In this document: one piece after another, positions 1,156 through 9,092 of the stretch | Layout: each line of letters opens with the position of its first letter | How positions within the stretch are numbered: position 1 is the stretch's first letter | IMG/VR virus record: IMGVR_UViG_2778261179_000013 | Location: 1 to 16,612 of that record | Length of the DNA stretch: 16,612 nt | Source: a virus | Lineage: Duplodnaviria > Heunggongvirae > Uroviricota > Caudoviricetes | Strand: one strand, 5' to 3' | Translations under genes and position numbers: made by a program | The notes under the pieces: model-generated | Seen by the model: the letters and a program-made list of their open reading frames with translations, nothing else | What the model was told of the DNA's origin: nothing | Databases searched by the model: none

Positions 1156-2379
1156 ATGGCTGGCGAACTTAACAAACTGAGCGACAGGAAGTTAAAGGGA
1201 TTACATGGTATCCCGGCCAGTAAGATTGAGTTCTATGCTGATGGTGCCGGGCTGAGCGCCAAGGTAACTAAAGTTGGTGGTATTAGCTGGGTGTTTACTT
1301 ACCGACTCGACGGGCAGAAGCTGCATCGTCTTACTCTGGGACGATACCCGGATATGAGCCTCAAAGAGGCCCGTTCTTCGCGTGATAAATGCCGCCAATG
1401 GCTGGCCTCAGGTAAAGATCCAAAGCACCAGTTGGCGCTGACCACTCAGGAAACGCTTAAACCGGTCACTGTTAAGGAAGCTATCGAATACTGGATACGC
1501 GAATATGCAGAAGAGAACCGCGCGAATGTTGAAAGGCACAAAGCGGAGCTGCGTAAACACATTTATCCTTATATTGGGAAAATGGCGCTCGCTGACTGCG
1601 AAACCCGTTATTGGCTTGACTGCTTTGACAGGATGAAAAAGAAAACGCCAGTTGCTGCGGGTTATGTGTTCCAGATGTGCAAGCAAGCCCTGAAATTCTG
1701 CCGGGTTCGTCGCTATGCTGTGAGTACCGCGCTGGAAGATTTAACAATTCCAGATGTCGGTAAAAAACAGGCAAAAAAAGACCGGGTATTAAACGATAAA
1801 GAGGCTGGCGATTTATGGGCTGCCATTACCTCTGGAACTTGCTTCATGCCTTACTACACCAGGCTACTGACAATCTTAATGGTGTTTGGGTGCCGAACGC
1901 AGGAGGCCAGACTGTCAGAATGGAGTGAATGGGATATGGATGCCTGGGTCTGGACAGTTCCCAAAGAGCACAGCAAGGGCGGCGAGAAGATTGTAAGACC
2001 TGTGCCGGATGCCATGCGCAAATTCATTGAAATACTGCATGATGAAACGAAATTATCCGGCCTTTTGCTTGGGTCGGTTAAAGGCAGTGAAGCGGTAAGT
2101 CAGTGGGGCCGCGGTGTTTATAAAAAGCTGGGGCATTCTGAACCATGGACACTGCACGATCTAAGACGAACTTTAGCAACGCATATGAATAATATGGGTA
2201 TAGCACCACACGTTGTCGAACAGTTGTTGGGGCACTCAATGCCGGGAGTTATGGCGATTTATAACCGTAGTCTGTACTTGCCTGAGAAACTGGATGCGTT
2301 GAATAAATGGTATGACCGTCTCGATATTTTGGCGGGTAATCACTCGAATATTGTTATTTTAAAGGCTGGTGAGAAATGA
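1156..2379 (+). CDS. int: Tyrosine recombinase, P4-type phage integrase
   Basis: 407 aa. N-terminal arm-binding-type region (GLSAKVTKVGGISWVFTYRLDGQKLHRLTLGRYP), catalytic region with HDLRRTLATHM (HxxR) and the LGHSMPGVMAIYNRSLY tyrosine motif. Confidence 0.95.
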   Translation: MAGELNKLSDRKLKGLHGIPASKIEFYADGAGLSAKVTKVGGISWVFTYRLDGQKLHRLTLGRYPDMSLKEARSSRDKCRQWLASGKDPKHQLALTTQETLKPVTVKEAIEYWIREYAEENRANVERHKAELRKHIYPYIGKMALADCETRYWLDCFDRMKKKTPVAAGYVFQMCKQALKFCRVRRYAVSTALEDLTIPDVGKKQAKKDRVLNDKEAGDLWAAITSGTCFMPYYTRLLTILMVFGCRTQEARLSEWSEWDMDAWVWTVPKEHSKGGEKIVRPVPDAMRKFIEILHDETKLSGLLLGSVKGSEAVSQWGRGVYKKLGHSEPWTLHDLRRTLATHMNNMGIAPHVVEQLLGHSMPGVMAIYNRSLYLPEKLDALNKWYDRLDILAGNHSNIVILKAGEK

Positions 2380-2678
2380 AAAAGATAAATAAAATGACCG
2401 AATTACCGAAATGGTTTTCATTGGACAATTACAATTCTATCAATGGGCTGAGTGATCTTGATTTAATTAATCAGTTAGCTATGAGAATGGAAGTTGCTAA
2501 TGATGATTTTGAATGGCTTGATACCTATCCCGGAGCAAGAAATGAGTTCGCTTCATTTATGGAAGAAAGATTTAGTAACCCAATTCGGCCACTGAGCGGA
2601 AAATTATTTGCAGAAAAAATAAAAAGAAAAAATATTCTGAATGGCAAATGGATTCCGTCGGAGGTGTTGAGCCTTTAA
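2376..2678 (+). CDS. Hypothetical protein (AT-rich cargo ORF)
   Basis: 100-aa ORF whose ATG overlaps the int stop (ATGA at 2376-2379). Markedly AT-rich compared with the flanking genes. No motif recognised. Confidence 0.4.
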   Translation: MKKINKMTELPKWFSLDNYNSINGLSDLDLINQLAMRMEVANDDFEWLDTYPGARNEFASFMEERFSNPIRPLSGKLFAEKIKRKNILNGKWIPSEVLSL

Positions 2679-3163
2679 GATTAATTGATGTGATGCAGTT
2701 GTCTAAGAAAGCCGCTCATTATATTGATGAAAATAAAATTAATCGCTCATTGCGTGGACAAAAAAGGTCTGTAAGTAAGACCATAAGCGATAATGATCAA
2801 ATGCATATTACTTTAGATTTGTCTTGGCCTGATGAAATTTTATTAAGCGATTTGGCTGCATTGTTGCCAATATGGCGAATGGATCTTGAAAGGAAAAGTG
2901 AAAATAGTTGTAAGTTAAGTAATAGCTGGAGTGTAATCAAAAAGAAAATATTCGATTGCAAGATATTGCCAATGTTAGACCTTATGGAGTGGGCTAAAAT
3001 TAACAATGCAACAATCACTAACAGAGTTTTATCTTTAGCCCTGTTTCCTAATGCAGAGTATGACGCCATTGGTATCGCTCAAACGATCAAACCGTTCATT
3101 AGAAATTTTTCCGCAGATTTTTCTATAGAAATATTAAAGCGCAAAGCTATGGATTCATTTTAA
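2648..3163 (+). CDS. Hypothetical protein (AT-rich cargo ORF); start uncertain (alternative ATG at 2693)
   Basis: 171-aa ORF in a different frame, overlapping the previous ORF by 31 nt just after an A-rich run (2606-2632). Either a separate gene or the distal half of a frameshifted gene. No motif recognised. Confidence 0.45.
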   Translation: MDSVGGVEPLRLIDVMQLSKKAAHYIDENKINRSLRGQKRSVSKTISDNDQMHITLDLSWPDEILLSDLAALLPIWRMDLERKSENSCKLSNSWSVIKKKIFDCKILPMLDLMEWAKINNATITNRVLSLALFPNAEYDAIGIAQTIKPFIRNFSADFSIEILKRKAMDSF

Positions 3164-3266: not shown

Positions 3267-3551
3267 ATGCAAAATATCACCTTTATCCCGCCAAATCCTG
3301 AGCAGCGCCGCACCCTTTTAGAGGAGTACGGCTTTAAGTTCGACCGTCGAATCCGTGAAGAAGAATGTAGCGAGATCACCAGCCTTTCCCGTTCCAGCCG
3401 CTGGAAGATGGAACAGCAGGGGCGCTTCCCTCCGCGCTGTCACTTTGGCCGCAATAGCTGTGCCTGGCTTCTTTCGGATGTGCTCTGGTGGGTTCGTAAT
3501 CCGCCAGCAGTAGAGAACGTCAATAACCCGTACAGCCGCAAATCTGCTTAA
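3267..3551 (+). CDS. alpA: AlpA-family phage transcriptional regulator (helix-turn-helix)
   Basis: 94 aa. EITSLSRSSRWKMEQQGRFPPRCHFGRNSCAWLLSDVLWW matches the AlpA pattern (tGlSRst.Y ... G.FP ... G.rsv.W ... eV..Wl). GGAGG lies upstream of the ATG. Confidence 0.7.
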   Translation: MQNITFIPPNPEQRRTLLEEYGFKFDRRIREEECSEITSLSRSSRWKMEQQGRFPPRCHFGRNSCAWLLSDVLWWVRNPPAVENVNNPYSRKSA

Positions 3552-3571: not shown

Positions 3572-4378
3572 ATGGAAAAAATAACTGCCTTGGCTGGCAG
3601 CGGCCAAACTCACCCCGAAACCAGCCAGAAAGATATTTCCAGCGATAATTTTGCTGCCCGGATCCCTGTAACCATGAGCACTATTGGTGGGAAAGAAACT
3701 CAGTCTGTAAGTGGTCGTAAGCTGCATACGTTTCTAGCTGTAGGGCGAGACTTTACCACCTGGATGAAAGCACGCATCAAACAGTATGGGTTTGTTAAAG
3801 GGGTTGATTATGTAATTGTTGAAGATTTGAGCACCCCAAAACGGGGGAGCGCAAAATCTCGCCAACAAGTCGAGCACGATTACATTGTCAGCCTGAATAT
3901 GGCTAAAGAGCTTTCTATGGTTGAGCGCAACGCGCAAGGCAAGATGGCCCGCCAGTATTTCATCGACTGTGAAGAACGTCTGCGCCGCGTAGCACCAGAG
4001 GAACATGAGGCGGCGTTGTTGGGCTGGCGTAAAAATCGTGTAGCTGCCTGCGAAGATCATAAGAGTATGGCCGATGCAATGAAGGGCTATATCGAGCGCA
4101 CCGGCGACAGGCAGCACGGCTTTGCCTACAGCAATGAATGCTCGTTCCTGAATAGCCTTGTGCTGGGTATGCACCCGCGAGTGTGGGCGAAACAGAAAGA
4201 AATTCCAGTTAAGCTGGTGCGTGACCATATGAACGCCGATCAGCTGGCGCTGCTGGCTTATCTGGAAAGCCGTGATTGTGCTCTGCTGGATCTTGATACC
4301 CGTACGGCAACCCGTAAGGCGAAACTCACCGAACTGGCACAACGCTGGCTGGTTAAGCGTGTTGGAGGTGCTGAGTGA
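3572..4378 (+). CDS. Phage antirepressor-like protein (AntA-type N-terminal domain)
   Basis: 268 aa. SGRKLHTFLAVGRDFTTWMKARIKQYGFVKGVDYVIV resembles the AntA/AntB antirepressor N-terminal motif (sARdLH.fL ... F..W ... ygF.eg.Dy). The C-terminal half is unassigned. Confidence 0.55.
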   Translation: MEKITALAGSGQTHPETSQKDISSDNFAARIPVTMSTIGGKETQSVSGRKLHTFLAVGRDFTTWMKARIKQYGFVKGVDYVIVEDLSTPKRGSAKSRQQVEHDYIVSLNMAKELSMVERNAQGKMARQYFIDCEERLRRVAPEEHEAALLGWRKNRVAACEDHKSMADAMKGYIERTGDRQHGFAYSNECSFLNSLVLGMHPRVWAKQKEIPVKLVRDHMNADQLALLAYLESRDCALLDLDTRTATRKAKLTELAQRWLVKRVGGAE

Positions 4379-4708
4379 TTTTGCATAACTCAATCAGGGT
4401 TGCGCAGAATTTGAGCCGACGAAATTCGCACGCGCAAATCAAGCTCGGTGATATGCCGAGTTTGAACAACCGCGTACTTTTAACGTACGGACATAGCAAC
4501 CCATTGAATCATCTTAATTATCGCGAAATGCGAGAATTGGCGAGCAACGAACACGAACAGTATTCGGGTTCGCCTGAACATCAACACTGCTTAGGTTCAG
4601 AGGTTCCGACGAATAACGTAGAGAGCTGCAATGGCAGCGCATTTTTGCTCTACGAGGGAAATCAACAACGTACAGTTTTGTACCGTAATCCAGATTTGGC
4701 TTACGAGA

Positions 4709-4768
4709 GGGTAGTACCTCAAAGTCACGAGGTTAACAGGGTAGTAACTCATAGTTACCAGGTTAACC
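4709..4768. repeat. Tandem direct repeat, 2 x 30 bp (25/30 identical), each unit containing GTTAAC
   Basis: gggtagtacctcaaagtcacgaggttaaca (4709-4738) and gggtagtaactcatagttaccaggttaacc (4739-4768). The units carry different internal stems (ACCTC/GAGGT in unit 1, GTAACT/AGTTAC in unit 2). Confidence 0.8.
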
Positions 4769-4877
4769 GCGTCGCTAAAAGATACGCGGAAAGCAAGACC
4801 TCTTTAAGAGGGGCAGTTCAGTGCGTGGAGACCTACGAAATTTTCGTAGGTCACAGCATTACCGAGAGTAACCCTGT

Positions 4878-5063
4878 TCAGCTTTCAGATTCCGATCTGG
4901 CTTTCTTGCGTTGGCGGCGTTTGATCTCGCATTGCATGGCTGTAACGATAAATTGGGCAGTGCTTTCGCCTTGCTCTTTAACTTGTTCCATTGCCTCGAC
5001 AACTTCATGCGGGGCACGAGTTTGCAATTTTTGTGATTTTTCGTTCTTTGTTCCCGTCGCCAT
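4878..5063 (-). CDS. Ribbon-helix-helix (Arc/CopG/MetJ-like) transcriptional regulator, probable island repressor
   Basis: 61 aa from the ATG at 5061-5063 (minus), preceded by AGGAGA with a 7-nt spacer. QKLQTRAP-HEVVEAMEQVKEQ-GES-TAQFIVTAMQCEI fits the RHH beta-strand / helix A / G-x-S turn / helix B pattern. The supplied ORF track starts it at a TTG at 5084. Confidence 0.65.
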   Translation of the reverse strand: MATGTKNEKSQKLQTRAPHEVVEAMEQVKEQGESTAQFIVTAMQCEIKRRQRKKARSESES

Positions 5064-5081
5064 TACTAAGTCTCCTGATAT

Positions 5082-5190
5082 CAAGTGGAGTACAGAATAC
5101 CAGAAAAATAATGAAATAAAACACTTGAAGTGGATTCCACTTTGTATTTATAGTGGAGTCCACCTTGAAGGGGTTCACCTTCAAGATATA
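5082..5190. promoter_or_regulatory. Divergent promoter/operator region with interleaved inverted repeats (half-sites AAGTGGA / TCCACTT and CACTT / AAGTG)
   Basis: cacttgaagtg (5122-5132) and aagtgga-t-tccactt (5128-5142) are overlapping palindromes; agtggagtccac (5152-5163) and ccttgaagg plus caccttcaag (5161-5185) follow. The region lies between the RHH gene and the rightward operon. Confidence 0.55.
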
Positions 5191-5261
5191 GCGAAGCCCG
5201 GCAGTGCGCGAACACTAACCGGGCCTCTGACCACCAAGATAGTTAACGTATCGAGGCAGCT

Positions 5262-5450
5262 ATGAAAGATTATATCACACACCCGCAAGGGCGGAAGTCC
5301 TACACCTGGCGTTTTCTGGCGCTGAGCGCCATCGGTCGCAACGTCATTCACATCAAAGCTACCACCGAACGCGAAGCCCGTGAGCAATCACCGGCTGGCT
5401 GCGTGATGGTATTCGCTGGCCGTCTGCCTGTGGAGGTGCGCCATGCGTGA
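5262..5450 (+). CDS. Hypothetical small protein (first gene of the rightward replication operon)
   Basis: 62-aa ORF with GAGG 5 nt upstream of the ATG; overlaps the next ORF. Confidence 0.5.
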   Translation: MKDYITHPQGRKSYTWRFLALSAIGRNVIHIKATTEREAREQSPAGCVMVFAGRLPVEVRHA

Positions 5451-5637: not shown

Positions 5638-5852
5638 GACAGGTTCCTTTTGAAGTCCTGATGCACGCTGAAAATGCCCTTTCTGAAAGCGAAGGAGCCT
5701 ATGAGGTTCTCAGCATGTGGCTAGACAGTATTCCTGAAGGCGAGGAGTTCCACGGTGAAGCGTGCAAGGTAAGCGCAATCATGTCGCTGCTGCATAAATC
5801 TATCGGCGAGCTGGTGAAAGCGCGGGAGGCTTACAGTGAAAAACGCGCCTAA
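5634..5852 (+). CDS. Hypothetical small acidic protein
   Basis: 72-aa ORF with GGAGA upstream; overlaps the start of the replication gene. Confidence 0.5.
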   Translation: MRQVPFEVLMHAENALSESEGAYEVLSMWLDSIPEGEEFHGEACKVSAIMSLLHKSIGELVKAREAYSEKRA

Positions 5853-7605
5853 CGTGAAAACCCTCCCACGCGACAAAATGGAGGAGGCCATCATCTTTGC
5901 CGGAACAGGAGCATGGAAAGCAGCTCAGGATTACCAGAAAGGTAAAGATGAGCATGGCGATGAGGTGCCGCCGGTTGTTCTGGATCATACCCAGCTGGCG
6001 GAATTACCCCACCTGCGCATTGTTGATAAAGGACGCCGATTTGCCCGTGTCTGTCAGGCCGGACTTATCGAACAAAACCAAATCAGTATGATTGCCAATA
6101 AGTTGTGTGAGGCTGGCGTTACCAATGCTGAGTTTATCAACGAAAAAGGTGAGAAAGAGGACTGGACGCCATTAATGAAGCGTCTGGAAGACGAGCCCCT
6201 AATGGTGACTACGAGGGGTAGCGCTACGCCAGCGCTTAACCAGATGGGAGCCAGCCAGCGCGGGGAAGTTCTGCTTGCTCATTACGATGGCAATCTGGCG
6301 ATCCATGCTGATTCCGACACGGTTCATCATTACAACGGCGTGGTGTGGGTTCCGCTTTCGGATAAAGAGCTGCAGCGAGAAATGGCGCAAATTTTTATTG
6401 ATGCCGAAGTCGCCTATTCGCAGAACGCGATTAAATCCGCTGTCGATACAATGAAGCTGGGTCTGCCAGTGATGGGTAACACAGCCCGAAATCTTATTGG
6501 TTTCAGCAACGGGGTTTTTGATACCCGGTTAGGGCAATTTCGACCACATGATAAAAAGGACTGGCTTATCGTTGCGAGCGAATTGCCATTCAGCGAACCA
6601 GCAGAAGGAGAGACTCTGGCAACCCATGCGCCGAACTTCTGGAAATGGCTCCGCCGCTCTGTGGCGGATAATGACAGAAAATCAGACCGCGTACTGTCTG
6701 CTCTGTTCATGGTGCTGGCGAACCGGTACGACTGGCAGCTGTTTCTTGAGGTAACGGGGCCGGGCGGAAGTGGTAAAAGTGTTATGGCTGAGATCTGCAC
6801 GATGCTGGCCGGCAAAGCCAATACGGTATCGGCAAGCATGGCGGCGCTGGAGAACCCAAGGGAAAGGGCGCTGGTGGTTGGCTATTCGCTGATTATCATG
6901 CCGGATATGACCCGGTACGCTGGCGACGGCGCAGGGATTAAAGCTATCACTGGCGGGGATAAGGTAGCTATCGACCCTAAACACAAAGCGCCGTATTCAA
7001 CGCGTATTCCGGCAGTGGTGCTGGCCGTCAATAACAATGCCATGTCATTCAGCGACCGAAGCGGTGGTATTTCGCGTCGTCGGGTTATTTTTAACTTCTC
7101 AGAGGTGGTACCGGAAAACGAACGTGATCCTATGCTTGCCGAGAAGATTGAAGGTGAGCTGGCCGTTATCATTCGCCACCTGCTTACTCGCTTTTCCAGA
7201 CAGGACGAGGCCAAACAGCTTTTGCATGAGCAGCAGAAATCAGAAGAGGCGCTGGCCATCAAACGTGAAGGGGATTCACTGGTGGACTTTTGCGGCTACC
7301 TGATGGCTTCGGTCGTATGTGATGGCATGTTTATCGGGAACGCCGAGATCGTACCGTTCAGCCCGCGCCGTTATCTGTATCACGCTTATCTGGCTTATAT
7401 GCGGGCTAACGGCCTGAGCAAGCCGGTGTCGCTGATGAGGTTCGGCACGGATATGCCAGGCGCAATGGCTGAATATGGCAAGGAGTACCAGAAGCGCAAA
7501 ACAAAACATGGCATAAGATCAAACGTCACACTTCACGACGATTCAGAAGACTGGATGCCTATGTGGAATGATACTTCTCACAATACCGGAGAAAATCAAA
7601 AGTAA
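5836..7605 (+). CDS. Replication initiator / SF3 helicase of the P4 alpha (D5-like) family (PICI pri-rep-like)
   Basis: 589 aa. Walker A VTGPGGSGKS, a Walker B-like LIIMPDMT region, and a D5_N-like segment (IGFSNGVFDTRLGQFRPHDKKDW). GTG start at 5836 is preceded by GGGAGG with a 7-nt spacer. No EGYATA-type primase motif seen in the N-terminal ~300 aa. Confidence 0.85.
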   Translation: MKNAPNVKTLPRDKMEEAIIFAGTGAWKAAQDYQKGKDEHGDEVPPVVLDHTQLAELPHLRIVDKGRRFARVCQAGLIEQNQISMIANKLCEAGVTNAEFINEKGEKEDWTPLMKRLEDEPLMVTTRGSATPALNQMGASQRGEVLLAHYDGNLAIHADSDTVHHYNGVVWVPLSDKELQREMAQIFIDAEVAYSQNAIKSAVDTMKLGLPVMGNTARNLIGFSNGVFDTRLGQFRPHDKKDWLIVASELPFSEPAEGETLATHAPNFWKWLRRSVADNDRKSDRVLSALFMVLANRYDWQLFLEVTGPGGSGKSVMAEICTMLAGKANTVSASMAALENPRERALVVGYSLIIMPDMTRYAGDGAGIKAITGGDKVAIDPKHKAPYSTRIPAVVLAVNNNAMSFSDRSGGISRRRVIFNFSEVVPENERDPMLAEKIEGELAVIIRHLLTRFSRQDEAKQLLHEQQKSEEALAIKREGDSLVDFCGYLMASVVCDGMFIGNAEIVPFSPRRYLYHAYLAYMRANGLSKPVSLMRFGTDMPGAMAEYGKEYQKRKTKHGIRSNVTLHDDSEDWMPMWNDTSHNTGENQK

Positions 7606-7860
7606 TGGGAAAAGTGTTCACCACTATTCACTGTGGATAAAATCGTTTATATAACAGATATTTAAGGGGTGAACACTTTTTATTGAAGTGTTCACCAAGT
7701 ATTCACCTGTTCACCTTTAAAGGGCTTTTCTTTTAAAAGGTGAAGGGTTAGGGTGAACACTAGTGAATACTTAAAATTATAGTCTTCACCCTGTAACCAT
7801 ATGAATTTGAATGGAAAAAATGCAAAGGTGAACAGGTGAACACTTAAACGCATATTTTTT
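7606..7860. repeat. Iteron array and AT-rich tract; putative origin of replication (P4 ori/crr-like)
   Basis: At least 10 copies of GGTGAACA(CTT) or its reverse complement (AAG)TGTTCACC, e.g. 7612-7622, 7668-7678, 7686-7696, 7709-7716, 7751-7760, 7826-7833, 7834-7844, plus variants (tattcacc, gtgaatac, cttcacc), followed by T-rich runs at 7852-7866. Placement immediately 3' of the replication gene is typical for these satellites. Confidence 0.75.
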
Positions 7861-8246: not shown

Positions 8247-9092
8247 ATGCGTACTAATGATGATTTACAGATAATCCGAAAGCATCTGGATGGTGAATTT
8301 GAACAGCGCCTGTTAGACGCTGCGATCAATAACCTTTTGGATGAAAATAATCAGCTTCGGTTCAGCAATTATGCCTATGCACTTAGAGAGCTATTCTTAC
8401 ACGTTCTAAAACGCATGGCACCTGATGAAAATGTTCAACTATGCGAGTGGTTTCCTGGTTTGAATGAAAGAGAGCAGGTTGCAAGAAAAGACTCTTACAA
8501 ATATATCATTCATGGTGGGTTAAGTGATGAATATGTCAGGGATGTACTTGATGTAAATATTGCCGGAGTAATTCCGGGATTGCGTGATGCGTTCTACTCA
8601 TTAAATAAATTTACTCACATAAGCGAAAAGATTTTTCCAATTAATGATGACGATGGCCTAAAAATGGTGGGAGAGGTTGAAGGTTGCATCGGAGCTCTTT
8701 TCACCAAGCTTGATGAGTGTCATAAGGAGATAATTAATAAGCTTTATGAAGCTGTGAGTGAGGCCGCGATACATAGTTCGATAACTGAAACTGTAACATC
8801 AATTGATATTTTATCGACACACAGCTCGGTTGATGAAGTGTATGTTGATGATGTGAAAATAGTAGAAATAAATGACTCTGAAGTAATTTTCTCTGTTAGT
8901 GGCTCTGTAGGTGTCGGGTTGCAATGGGGATCTAATTCCGATTTGCGAAATGACATAGGTGCTGTAGGTAGAGAAACATTCCCATTTACCTGCGAGGTGA
9001 GAAGTCCAGTGTATGCCCCTGAACGTTTAGAGTGTGATGAAGGGGCATTCCATGCAGATACTTCAAGTTGGTGGGAAGGATATTACGACTAA
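8247..9092 (+). CDS. Hypothetical protein (AT-rich cargo, gene 2 of a two-gene cassette)
   Basis: 281-aa ORF with AAGAAGGGA upstream of the ATG. Helical N-terminal region containing an R-x4-H motif (RELFLH) and a beta-rich C-terminal region. Followed by an intrinsic terminator. Confidence 0.6.
   Translation: MRTNDDLQIIRKHLDGEFEQRLLDAAINNLLDENNQLRFSNYAYALRELFLHVLKRMAPDENVQLCEWFPGLNEREQVARKDSYKYIIHGGLSDEYVRDVLDVNIAGVIPGLRDAFYSLNKFTHISEKIFPINDDDGLKMVGEVEGCIGALFTKLDECHKEIINKLYEAVSEAAIHSSITETVTSIDILSTHSSVDEVYVDDVKIVEINDSEVIFSVSGSVGVGLQWGSNSDLRNDIGAVGRETFPFTCEVRSPVYAPERLECDEGAFHADTSSWWEGYYD

Follow-up and report, generated by a model that had tools for sequence, protein, structure and literature searches.

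A frame-preserving tandem repeat in a possible Eta-like translated leader of an Escherichia coli capsid-forming PICI

What are two nearly identical 30-bp units doing side by side in the gap between an antA-like gene and an RHH-type regulator gene of a phage satellite, and why does each carry a different internal stem? The units lie on the + strand at 4709–4738 (unit 1, GGGTAGTACCTCAAAGTCACGAGGTTAACA) and 4739–4768 (unit 2, GGGTAGTAACTCATAGTTACCAGGTTAACC) of the window, i.e. the whole stretch of 16 612 nucleotides analysed here (IMG/VR record IMGVR_UViG_2778261179_000013). They were taken in the initial annotation for a paired protein-binding site or an RNA element rather than coding sequence, and its description of the repeat itself was accurate. 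The units are identical at 25 of 30 positions, with mismatches at unit positions 9, 14, 18, 21 and 30. The repeat was reported by Tandem Repeats Finder (4708–4767, period 30, 2.0 copies, 86% matches, score 92) and recovered alike by a separate repeat-finding run on the window. A degenerate 29-mer spanning both units matched the window twice, at the units themselves, against an expectation of 0.00 (0 of 200 dinucleotide-preserving shuffles). The two inverted repeats were also placed as described: ACCTC (4716–4720) pairs with GAGGT (4729–4733) in unit 1, and GTAACT (4744–4749) with AGTTAC (4753–4758) around a CAT loop in unit 2. GGTTAAC is present near the end of both (4731–4737 and 4761–4767). 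A further property, absent from that description, is that at 30 bp the period is a whole 10 codons of an extended open frame on the + strand, in which unit 1 reads RVVPQSHEVN and unit 2 RVVTHSYQVN. The sequences of units 1 and 2 are called the P-type and T-type alleles below.

Gene identities were taken from Pfam and from the RefSeq annotation of a 99.8% identical chromosome, that of E. coli ABW_S38 (CP067265). The island is integrated beside yhdJ. Its genes follow in the order integrase, DUF6387, AlpA (alpA, 3267–3551, + strand), AntA-like (3572–4378, + strand, stop codon 4376–4378), a 500-bp gap, an RHH-type regulator of the YlcI/YnfO family on the - strand (4878–5063; NF041551, E 6e-19), an Icd-like (P4 Kil-like) gene, icd (5262–5450, + strand; NF033153), two small ORFs and a D5/P4-alpha-type primase (5836–7605). 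The icd gene is the first of the replication operon. Genes for an HK97-type capsid, protease, portal, connectors, HNH and terminase come after the primase. The P4 alpha-binding octamer TGTTCACC was found in seven exact copies, all within 7615–7842, against 0.39 expected in the window, and this segment is very likely the replication origin of the island, of the P4 ori/crr type. The copies occur on both strands, just past the primase gene and round AT-rich stretches. By its gene order and the seven octamers, the window is a capsid-forming PICI of E. coli whose early region resembles that of P4. Capsid-forming PICIs of the EcCIEDL933 type share its int, alpA, primase/rep, HK97-type capsid, protease, portal, connector, HNH and terminase genes and its size class (about 15–17 kb). 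The 16.5-kb induced 'phage' genome vB_KppS-Ant is a relative of the island, and this genome of an induced particle has the leader described next.

The open frame that contains the repeat has 296 codons and runs on the + strand from GTG 4375 to TGA 5263–5265. Its start overlaps the antA stop codon, with GGAGG six nucleotides before it (4364–4368), and its TGA overlaps the icd ATG at 5262 (ATGA). On the way it crosses the gap, the RHH gene, which lies antisense within it, and the putative icd promoter. When its translation was used as a protein query, 522 predicted proteins of 180–470 aa were matched in E. coli, Enterobacter, Citrobacter, Salmonella, Klebsiella and Yersinia, many of them labelled 'Icd-like'. 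In most relatives the leader frame continues in frame into Icd, whereas in the subfamily of the window the two are coupled by the ATGA overlap and not fused. In other islands, too, the start of the ORF overlaps the stop of the upstream gene.

That the frame is specifically kept open is indicated by the distribution of stop codons. In 27 distinct leaders (24.6 kb), 6 stops were counted in the ORF frame, all within two leaders (L012 and L036), as against 517 and 512 in the other two + frames. Retrieving the relatives through the translated ORF favours loci in which the frame is open; the contrast between frames within each locus is independent of this bias. The same frame is open in two more distant islands, despite different flanking and repressor genes, and runs into icd in both. 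Leader lengths range from 230 to 680 codons across relatives. Eight - strand genes embedded in such leaders come from seven loci and, by annotation, from at least three families; all eight keep to a single phase against the + strand ORF, and none of them puts a stop into the + frame; after synonymous-codon shuffling of these genes the + frame stayed open in 2–70% of trials per gene. Length changes also respect the frame: the indels between islands are 54 and 27 bp long, and the repeat unit 30 bp. The claim that the repeat is something other than coding sequence therefore has to be revised, since the repeat lies inside a frame-specific ORF with a Shine-Dalgarno sequence and start codon that is open in hundreds of relatives, the peptide itself being unconstrained.

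Two further observations concern the extent of these leaders. Very long open + frames, of 513 codons in L019 (2171–3712) and 678 codons in L009 (2752–4788), span two opposite-strand genes or a 124-aa CopG-like gene, with L019 the locus of an ORF over two - strand genes; both loci are without the core motif. In the window, a core of about 90 bp (AACACGAACAGTATTCGGGTTC...GTAGAGAGCTGC) within 4380–4630 is nearly identical (1–2 differences) in L002, L005 and L007. These islands differ in flanking genes, repressors, primases and integration sites, and the mosaic boundary is sharp, which suggests strong constraint on the core or very recent exchange of a module.

The frame is held open while the amino-acid sequence is free to change. 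Between the leader of the window (4375–4877) and its relatives, 174 distinct substitutions were spread evenly over codon positions 1, 2 and 3 (63/53/58); the synonymous share was 25%, with 21% expected for random changes; and stop-creating changes numbered 3 in the ORF frame as against 11 and 13 in the other frames. These counts are a crude test and are confounded by constraints on the hairpins. The codon-usage log-likelihood of the leader was -0.07 per codon; genuine genes of the island, small ones withheld from the training set among them, scored between +0.14 and +0.32. AlphaFold, given an alignment of 45 sequences, returned a mean pLDDT of 36 and a pTM of 0.14, and a Pfam and NCBIfam search of the ORF found no family outside the Icd part. 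All allele differences of the unit but one alter an amino acid. It is thus highly improbable that the ORF encodes a functional protein, fast-evolving or disordered (a long Icd/Eta isoform), in which the repeat would be a 10-residue peptide repeat with a role at the protein level. The conservation of the ORF, its Shine-Dalgarno sequence and start codon, its fusion to an Icd-like domain in most islands and its annotation by gene callers and NCBI would all fit such a protein. The even substitutions, the near-random synonymous fraction, the amino-acid changes between alleles and a codon usage unlike that of island genes do not, nor do the low pLDDT, the want of a domain outside Icd and the absence of Icd fusion in the subfamily of the window.

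How often the unit is doubled was determined in the 120 best matches of the leader ORF protein search. A P-then-T tandem was present in 19 of the 120, with the same downstream cassette each time; at least 42 had one unit, of either type; and the remainder had no unit and a different cassette instead. The tandem haplotype was found in at least 19 protein clusters with different flanks, from E. coli, Enterobacter and others. Nucleotide searches yielded few matches, and it was the translated ORF that brought the family into view. The repeat segment was found in 1 of 5426 complete E. coli genomes, and a search of GTDB species representatives gave 2 loci only. A nucleotide search of phage records with the gap matched vB_KppS-Ant alone, which shares the leader and lacks the unit. 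The unit junction AGGTTAACNGGGTAGTA, scanned in viral contigs, gave two chance matches in unrelated structural genes. Within the window the 30-mer occurs at the two units and nowhere else. Several syntenic islands (L002, L005, L006 and L007) lack the tandem, and it is the single unit that is conserved. In a metagenomic relative (L022, 2523–2583), the P-T tandem is spaced at 31 bp by one extra G, which breaks the frame; this locus has no repressor gene and no accessory gene and may be a decaying island or a case of the repeat outliving the ORF.

The two stems are explained by the alleles. DNA from 13 distinct relatives aligned without gaps across 110 bp, GGTTAAC being invariant. In these relatives unit positions 9 and 18 are strictly linked, as C/C in the P-type and A/T in the T-type. 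Pair 12–21 of the P-type stem is C-G, C.C or G-C, and the other variable site is in the loop; the exchange of C-G for G-C reads as a compensatory change. In single T-type copies (L027, L037, L038 and L041), variation is confined to the loop and to position 21, which is outside the stem. In both alleles, then, variation leaves the allele's own stem intact, and the stem is shifted by 2–5 bp between the two. The non-equivalent stems are two pre-existing alleles of one cassette set side by side, most simply through unequal recombination, and the tandem is one haplotype uniting a P and a T copy. Taken alone, the tandem is a minor, ordinary variant of one cassette.

Other readings of the repeat were considered and rejected. 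Short tandem direct repeats on mobile elements are also a feature of type III toxin-antitoxin RNAs (ToxI) and of iteron origins. The number of units here is only 0–2, unlike that in type III antitoxins, and there is no ToxN-like gene downstream on either strand. The P4-type iteron TGTTCACC is absent from the repeat, TGTTAACC on the - strand being one base off. Pairing of the unit with the icd leader would be based on the self-complementary GTTAAC (6 bp) alone, and other islands have no GTTAAC there. A - strand ORF over the repeat (4597–4752, 51 aa), whose ATG is the CAT loop of unit 2, was also discarded; it is absent from single-unit relatives and has stops in L036 and L038.

The copy numbers bear directly on the idea of a paired site. 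Most relatives have one unit or none, and pairing is therefore not a conserved property. Whether 0, 1 or 2 units are present varies independently of the type of repressor, i.e. paired sites are not conserved with a cognate regulator, and the presence of a unit is likewise independent of the primase type and of the upstream gene (AntA, Rha or unrelated proteins of 196–236 aa). Better candidates for RHH operators lie elsewhere. The icd operon has a putative promoter/operator region at 5083–5163, within the leader ORF, with a -35 box TTGAAG (5125–5130), a -10 box TATAGT (5149–5154) and three GTGGAnTCCAC-type sites (5083–5094, 5128–5142 and 5151–5163). These palindromes over the promoter, and not the 30-bp units, are likely the RHH operators. 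It is accordingly very unlikely that the units form a paired operator or recruitment site for the RHH, AlpA or an AntA/Bro-type protein. The palindromic GTTAAC core that ends both units, the invariance of GGTTAAC, the many local inverted repeats with very short, operator-like spacers and the symmetric changes in palindromes, which could reflect a dimeric binder, are consistent with such a site. Even so, the stem moves between P and T, leaving no single recognition sequence, and more than ten different palindromes in 500 bp would require many proteins.

Two sequence features near the RHH gene and the icd promoter are recorded here. A stem-loop, GCCCGGCAGTGCGCGAACACTAACCGGGC, is found at 5192–5233, downstream of the icd promoter and ahead of the icd start codon. 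Of the whole stretch 4800–5265, this segment alone is common (about 93%) to some 50 other complete E. coli genomes; in these it has no annotation or lies beneath 'Icd-like' or 'ash family' genes. Its sole Rfam match is a weak one to SymR (E 0.045), and icd operons may have it as a conserved leader element. In the region antisense to the RHH gene, the + strand sequence TTGCTCTTTAACTT (4969–4982) holds the rrn-type boxA core GCTCTTTAAC; as islands with other repressor genes do not conserve this match, chance probably accounts for it.

The 30-bp unit is one member of an array. The whole region between antA and the RHH gene (4379–4877) is a mosaic of hairpin cassettes that are common to islands in varied combinations. 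Besides the units it holds H0 (4634–4653), H1 (4670–4683), H2 (4684–4705), CCTCTTTAAGAGG (4799–4811) and an 11-bp perfect palindrome (4830–4852). The 502-nt gap folds far better than shuffled sequences (z -6.7 for the + strand, -6.0 for the -). In the four helices adjoining the unit, 91.7% of alignment cells were paired on the + strand and 90.7% on the -, as against about 30% in a control in which the partners were slid by 1–3 columns. Six pairs had changed on both sides; pair 44–53 of H1, for example, is A-U, C-G or G-C. Two further compensated stems were seen by eye: TCGCG..CGCGA as against TAACG..CGTTA, and the 11-bp palindrome at 4830–4852 as against ACCTACAAAAA..TTTTTGTAGGT in L019. The covariation score was reached by 0 of 500 shuffles; because related sequences inflate such scores, this covariation is support and not proof. 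The stems of about ten short hairpins, the 30-bp unit among them, are probably under selection. Rfam returned nothing relevant, whether the whole window was searched at the gathering threshold or 4300–5300 with E values up to 10.

Which strand the hairpins act on is less clear-cut. Pair counts and folding z-scores are alike on the + and - strands, and symmetric DNA sites would covary similarly; G-U cells number 12 on the + strand and 9 on the -. The suggestion of an RNA element in the initial annotation is supported in part, by the compensatory changes that keep the stems of the unit and its neighbours and by the folding of the gap. On the - strand, a transcript of the RHH gene would meet the 11-bp perfect hairpin at 4830–4852, then the terminator-like CCTCTTAAAGAGG with its T-rich tail at 4811–4799, and only then the repeat. 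Because the repeat lies beyond these two hairpins, it would be part of the RHH transcript by read-through alone, and its initial placement in the 3' region of that transcript is uncertain.

The hairpins, the units included, might act on the - strand only, as tandem terminators or 3' stabilisers of the RHH mRNA. They would then protect antA and alpA against convergent antisense transcription, and the open + frame would be a separate matter. The terminator-like sequence has similar palindromes in all relatives, a conserved hairpin just past the RHH stop pairs better on the - strand (G-U, as against A.C on the +), and the region folds equally well on that strand. Exclusive action there is nevertheless unlikely. 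Few RHH transcripts should reach the repeat, because two strong - strand hairpins precede it; several G-U pairs exist on the + strand only; about 500 nt of hairpins far exceeds the need of a 186-nt gene; and the frame-preserving lengths of the cassettes are left unexplained. Our leading guess is that the hairpins are conditional terminators or processing sites on the + transcript, which ribosomes would override, terminators or 3' stabilisers of the RHH transcript on the - strand, or both.

Doubling of the unit has a structural consequence that was not part of the initial annotation. Where P and T copies are joined, a larger composite hairpin is formed. Both units and the downstream CGCGTCGC make up an imperfect palindrome (about 4723–4776) that only the tandem haplotype has: round the hairpin of unit 2, GGTTAAC of unit 1 and of unit 2 pairs, as do the flanks GTCACG and CGCGTC. 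The folding energy of the 107-nt tandem segment is -33.9 kcal/mol for each strand (z -3.5 and -4.4); relatives with one unit have 77-nt segments of -18 to -23 kcal/mol, and because the lengths differ these energies are only roughly comparable. The tandem may act as a stronger composite hairpin, or may be a tolerated product of recombination.

The second of these options, a neutral duplication or recombination scar in a mosaic spacer with no function beyond keeping the frame intact, has a modest chance of being correct. There is one haplotype, P then T with a constant downstream cassette, and this constancy suggests a single event spread by recombination; islands with a single unit or none look complete; and the region is clearly mosaic. 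Set against this are the persistence of the haplotype in its many protein clusters with different flanks and the complementarity of the downstream flank to unit 1, which yields the composite hairpin of about 54 nt and hints at selection on the combined structure.

What could keep a frame open over an antisense gene, a promoter and a hairpin array while its peptide drifts? The closest parallel is in phage P4. According to the summary in PMC10111431 of the work of Forti et al. (1999, J Bacteriol 181:5225), translation of P4 Eta depends entirely on the upstream late promoter. [quoted passage not shown] The P4 genes are ordered vis (AlpA family), 'cI ORF' (Eta), epsilon, orf151, cnr, alpha and crr. 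Both elements have, in this order, an AlpA-family gene, a long ORF, small ORFs, a primase and TGTTCACC iterons. The long ORF ends in an Icd-like/Kil domain in P4 and in most relatives of the island; in the window it stops on the icd ATG. In both, the long ORF starts where the upstream gene finishes and extends over the region of immunity and promoter, and its upstream part has no recognisable protein domain. NF033153 is common to the window icd, the C-termini of the long ORFs (residues 288–331 of the L002 ORF) and the C-terminus of P4 Eta (residues 85–132, E 8e-21).

The likeness has limits. P4 Eta has 138 aa and overlaps the CI (C4-type) RNA, seqA and isrK, whereas this island has instead a protein repressor gene on the opposite strand and an array of short hairpin cassettes. 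The ORF in the subfamily of the window is coupled to icd by the ATGA overlap, unlike the in-frame fusion of P4. Rfam models C4, isrK and c4-a1b1 were detected in P4; the window matched none of the three, also when E values up to 10 were allowed. Because the window is without a C4/CI, isrK or seqA-type RNA, the core of P4 immunity, the analogy is confined to the Eta part.

On balance we lean towards reading the repeat as a frame-preserving 10 + 10 codon doubling of a stem-loop cassette within an Eta-like translated leader, whose translation would keep alpA-driven transcripts running into the icd-primase genes. We infer translation of the ORF, prevention of termination and a role for the hairpins; the frame itself is kept open without amino-acid constraint. 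Through the leader ORF, the alpA-antA transcript that the helper induces would be connected with the replication operon of icd and primase. Ribosomes ending antA would reinitiate at GTG 4375, pass the hairpin cassettes, the RHH gene in antisense and the RHH operators, and stop at the start codon of icd, where they would begin anew. If P4 Eta/Kil is a guide, the act of translating, and not the peptide, would matter: it would shield the long transcript from termination, by Rho or at the hairpins, and induction would therefore bypass the RHH-repressed icd promoter. Unequal recombination would be the probable origin of the tandem from one P and one T copy.

It is quite unlikely, in our estimate, that the cassettes amount to a new modular RNA regulatory system of PICI/P4-like satellites that replaces C4/CI antisense-RNA immunity. 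Such a system would consist of conditional terminators or processed small RNAs that are read out only if the leader ORF is untranslated, and the number of cassettes and their alleles would set the threshold of a switch or the specificity of immunity.

A translated leader of the Eta type would have consequences for how these satellites are understood. It is reported that alpA is needed for cf-PICI induction (bioRxiv 10.1101/2022.09.08.507074). The step from alpA induction to replication in Gram-negative PICIs and cf-PICIs is poorly described, and the locus suggests a simple route: a P4 Eta-type translated spacer would carry the induced transcript past a convergent repressor gene and its operators. 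The literature searched on PICIs and cf-PICIs holds no mention of a long leader ORF, an embedded antisense repressor or hairpin cassettes, and the EcCIMP1 paper (PMC11773190) has nothing on the antA-icd region. The Eta/Kil principle is known from P4; what appears to be new is its use in a PICI/cf-PICI without CI RNA, across an antisense repressor and covarying cassettes. Hundreds of enterobacterial islands (Enterobacteriaceae) have kept the frame open, with free drift of the peptide. Annotation pipelines name these ORFs of 300–470 aa 'Icd-like proteins' or ignore them as a 500-bp 'intergenic' gap, and the architecture is hidden either way. With 0, 1 or 2 copies and two stem alleles, the tandem is a natural handle on hairpin function.

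Other features of the island were noted in passing. DUF6387 (2376–3163) is split in the window into overlapping ORFs (2376–2678 and 2648–3163), where ABW_S38 has one intact gene of 262 aa; by this comparison the split is a frameshift or a sequencing error in the window. Between the predicted origin and the capsid gene, 8247–9092 encodes a 281-aa protein with both 'pPIWI-associating nuclease' domains (PF18165, E 7e-31; PF18166, E 1e-36) and no Argonaute nearby; it could serve the satellite as defence or interference cargo. Directly upstream of the integrase gene, at 1116–1142, lies a 12–13-bp direct repeat (TGTATAAACACTT x 2.2) that may provide a pair of arm-type sites for the integrase or belong to attL.
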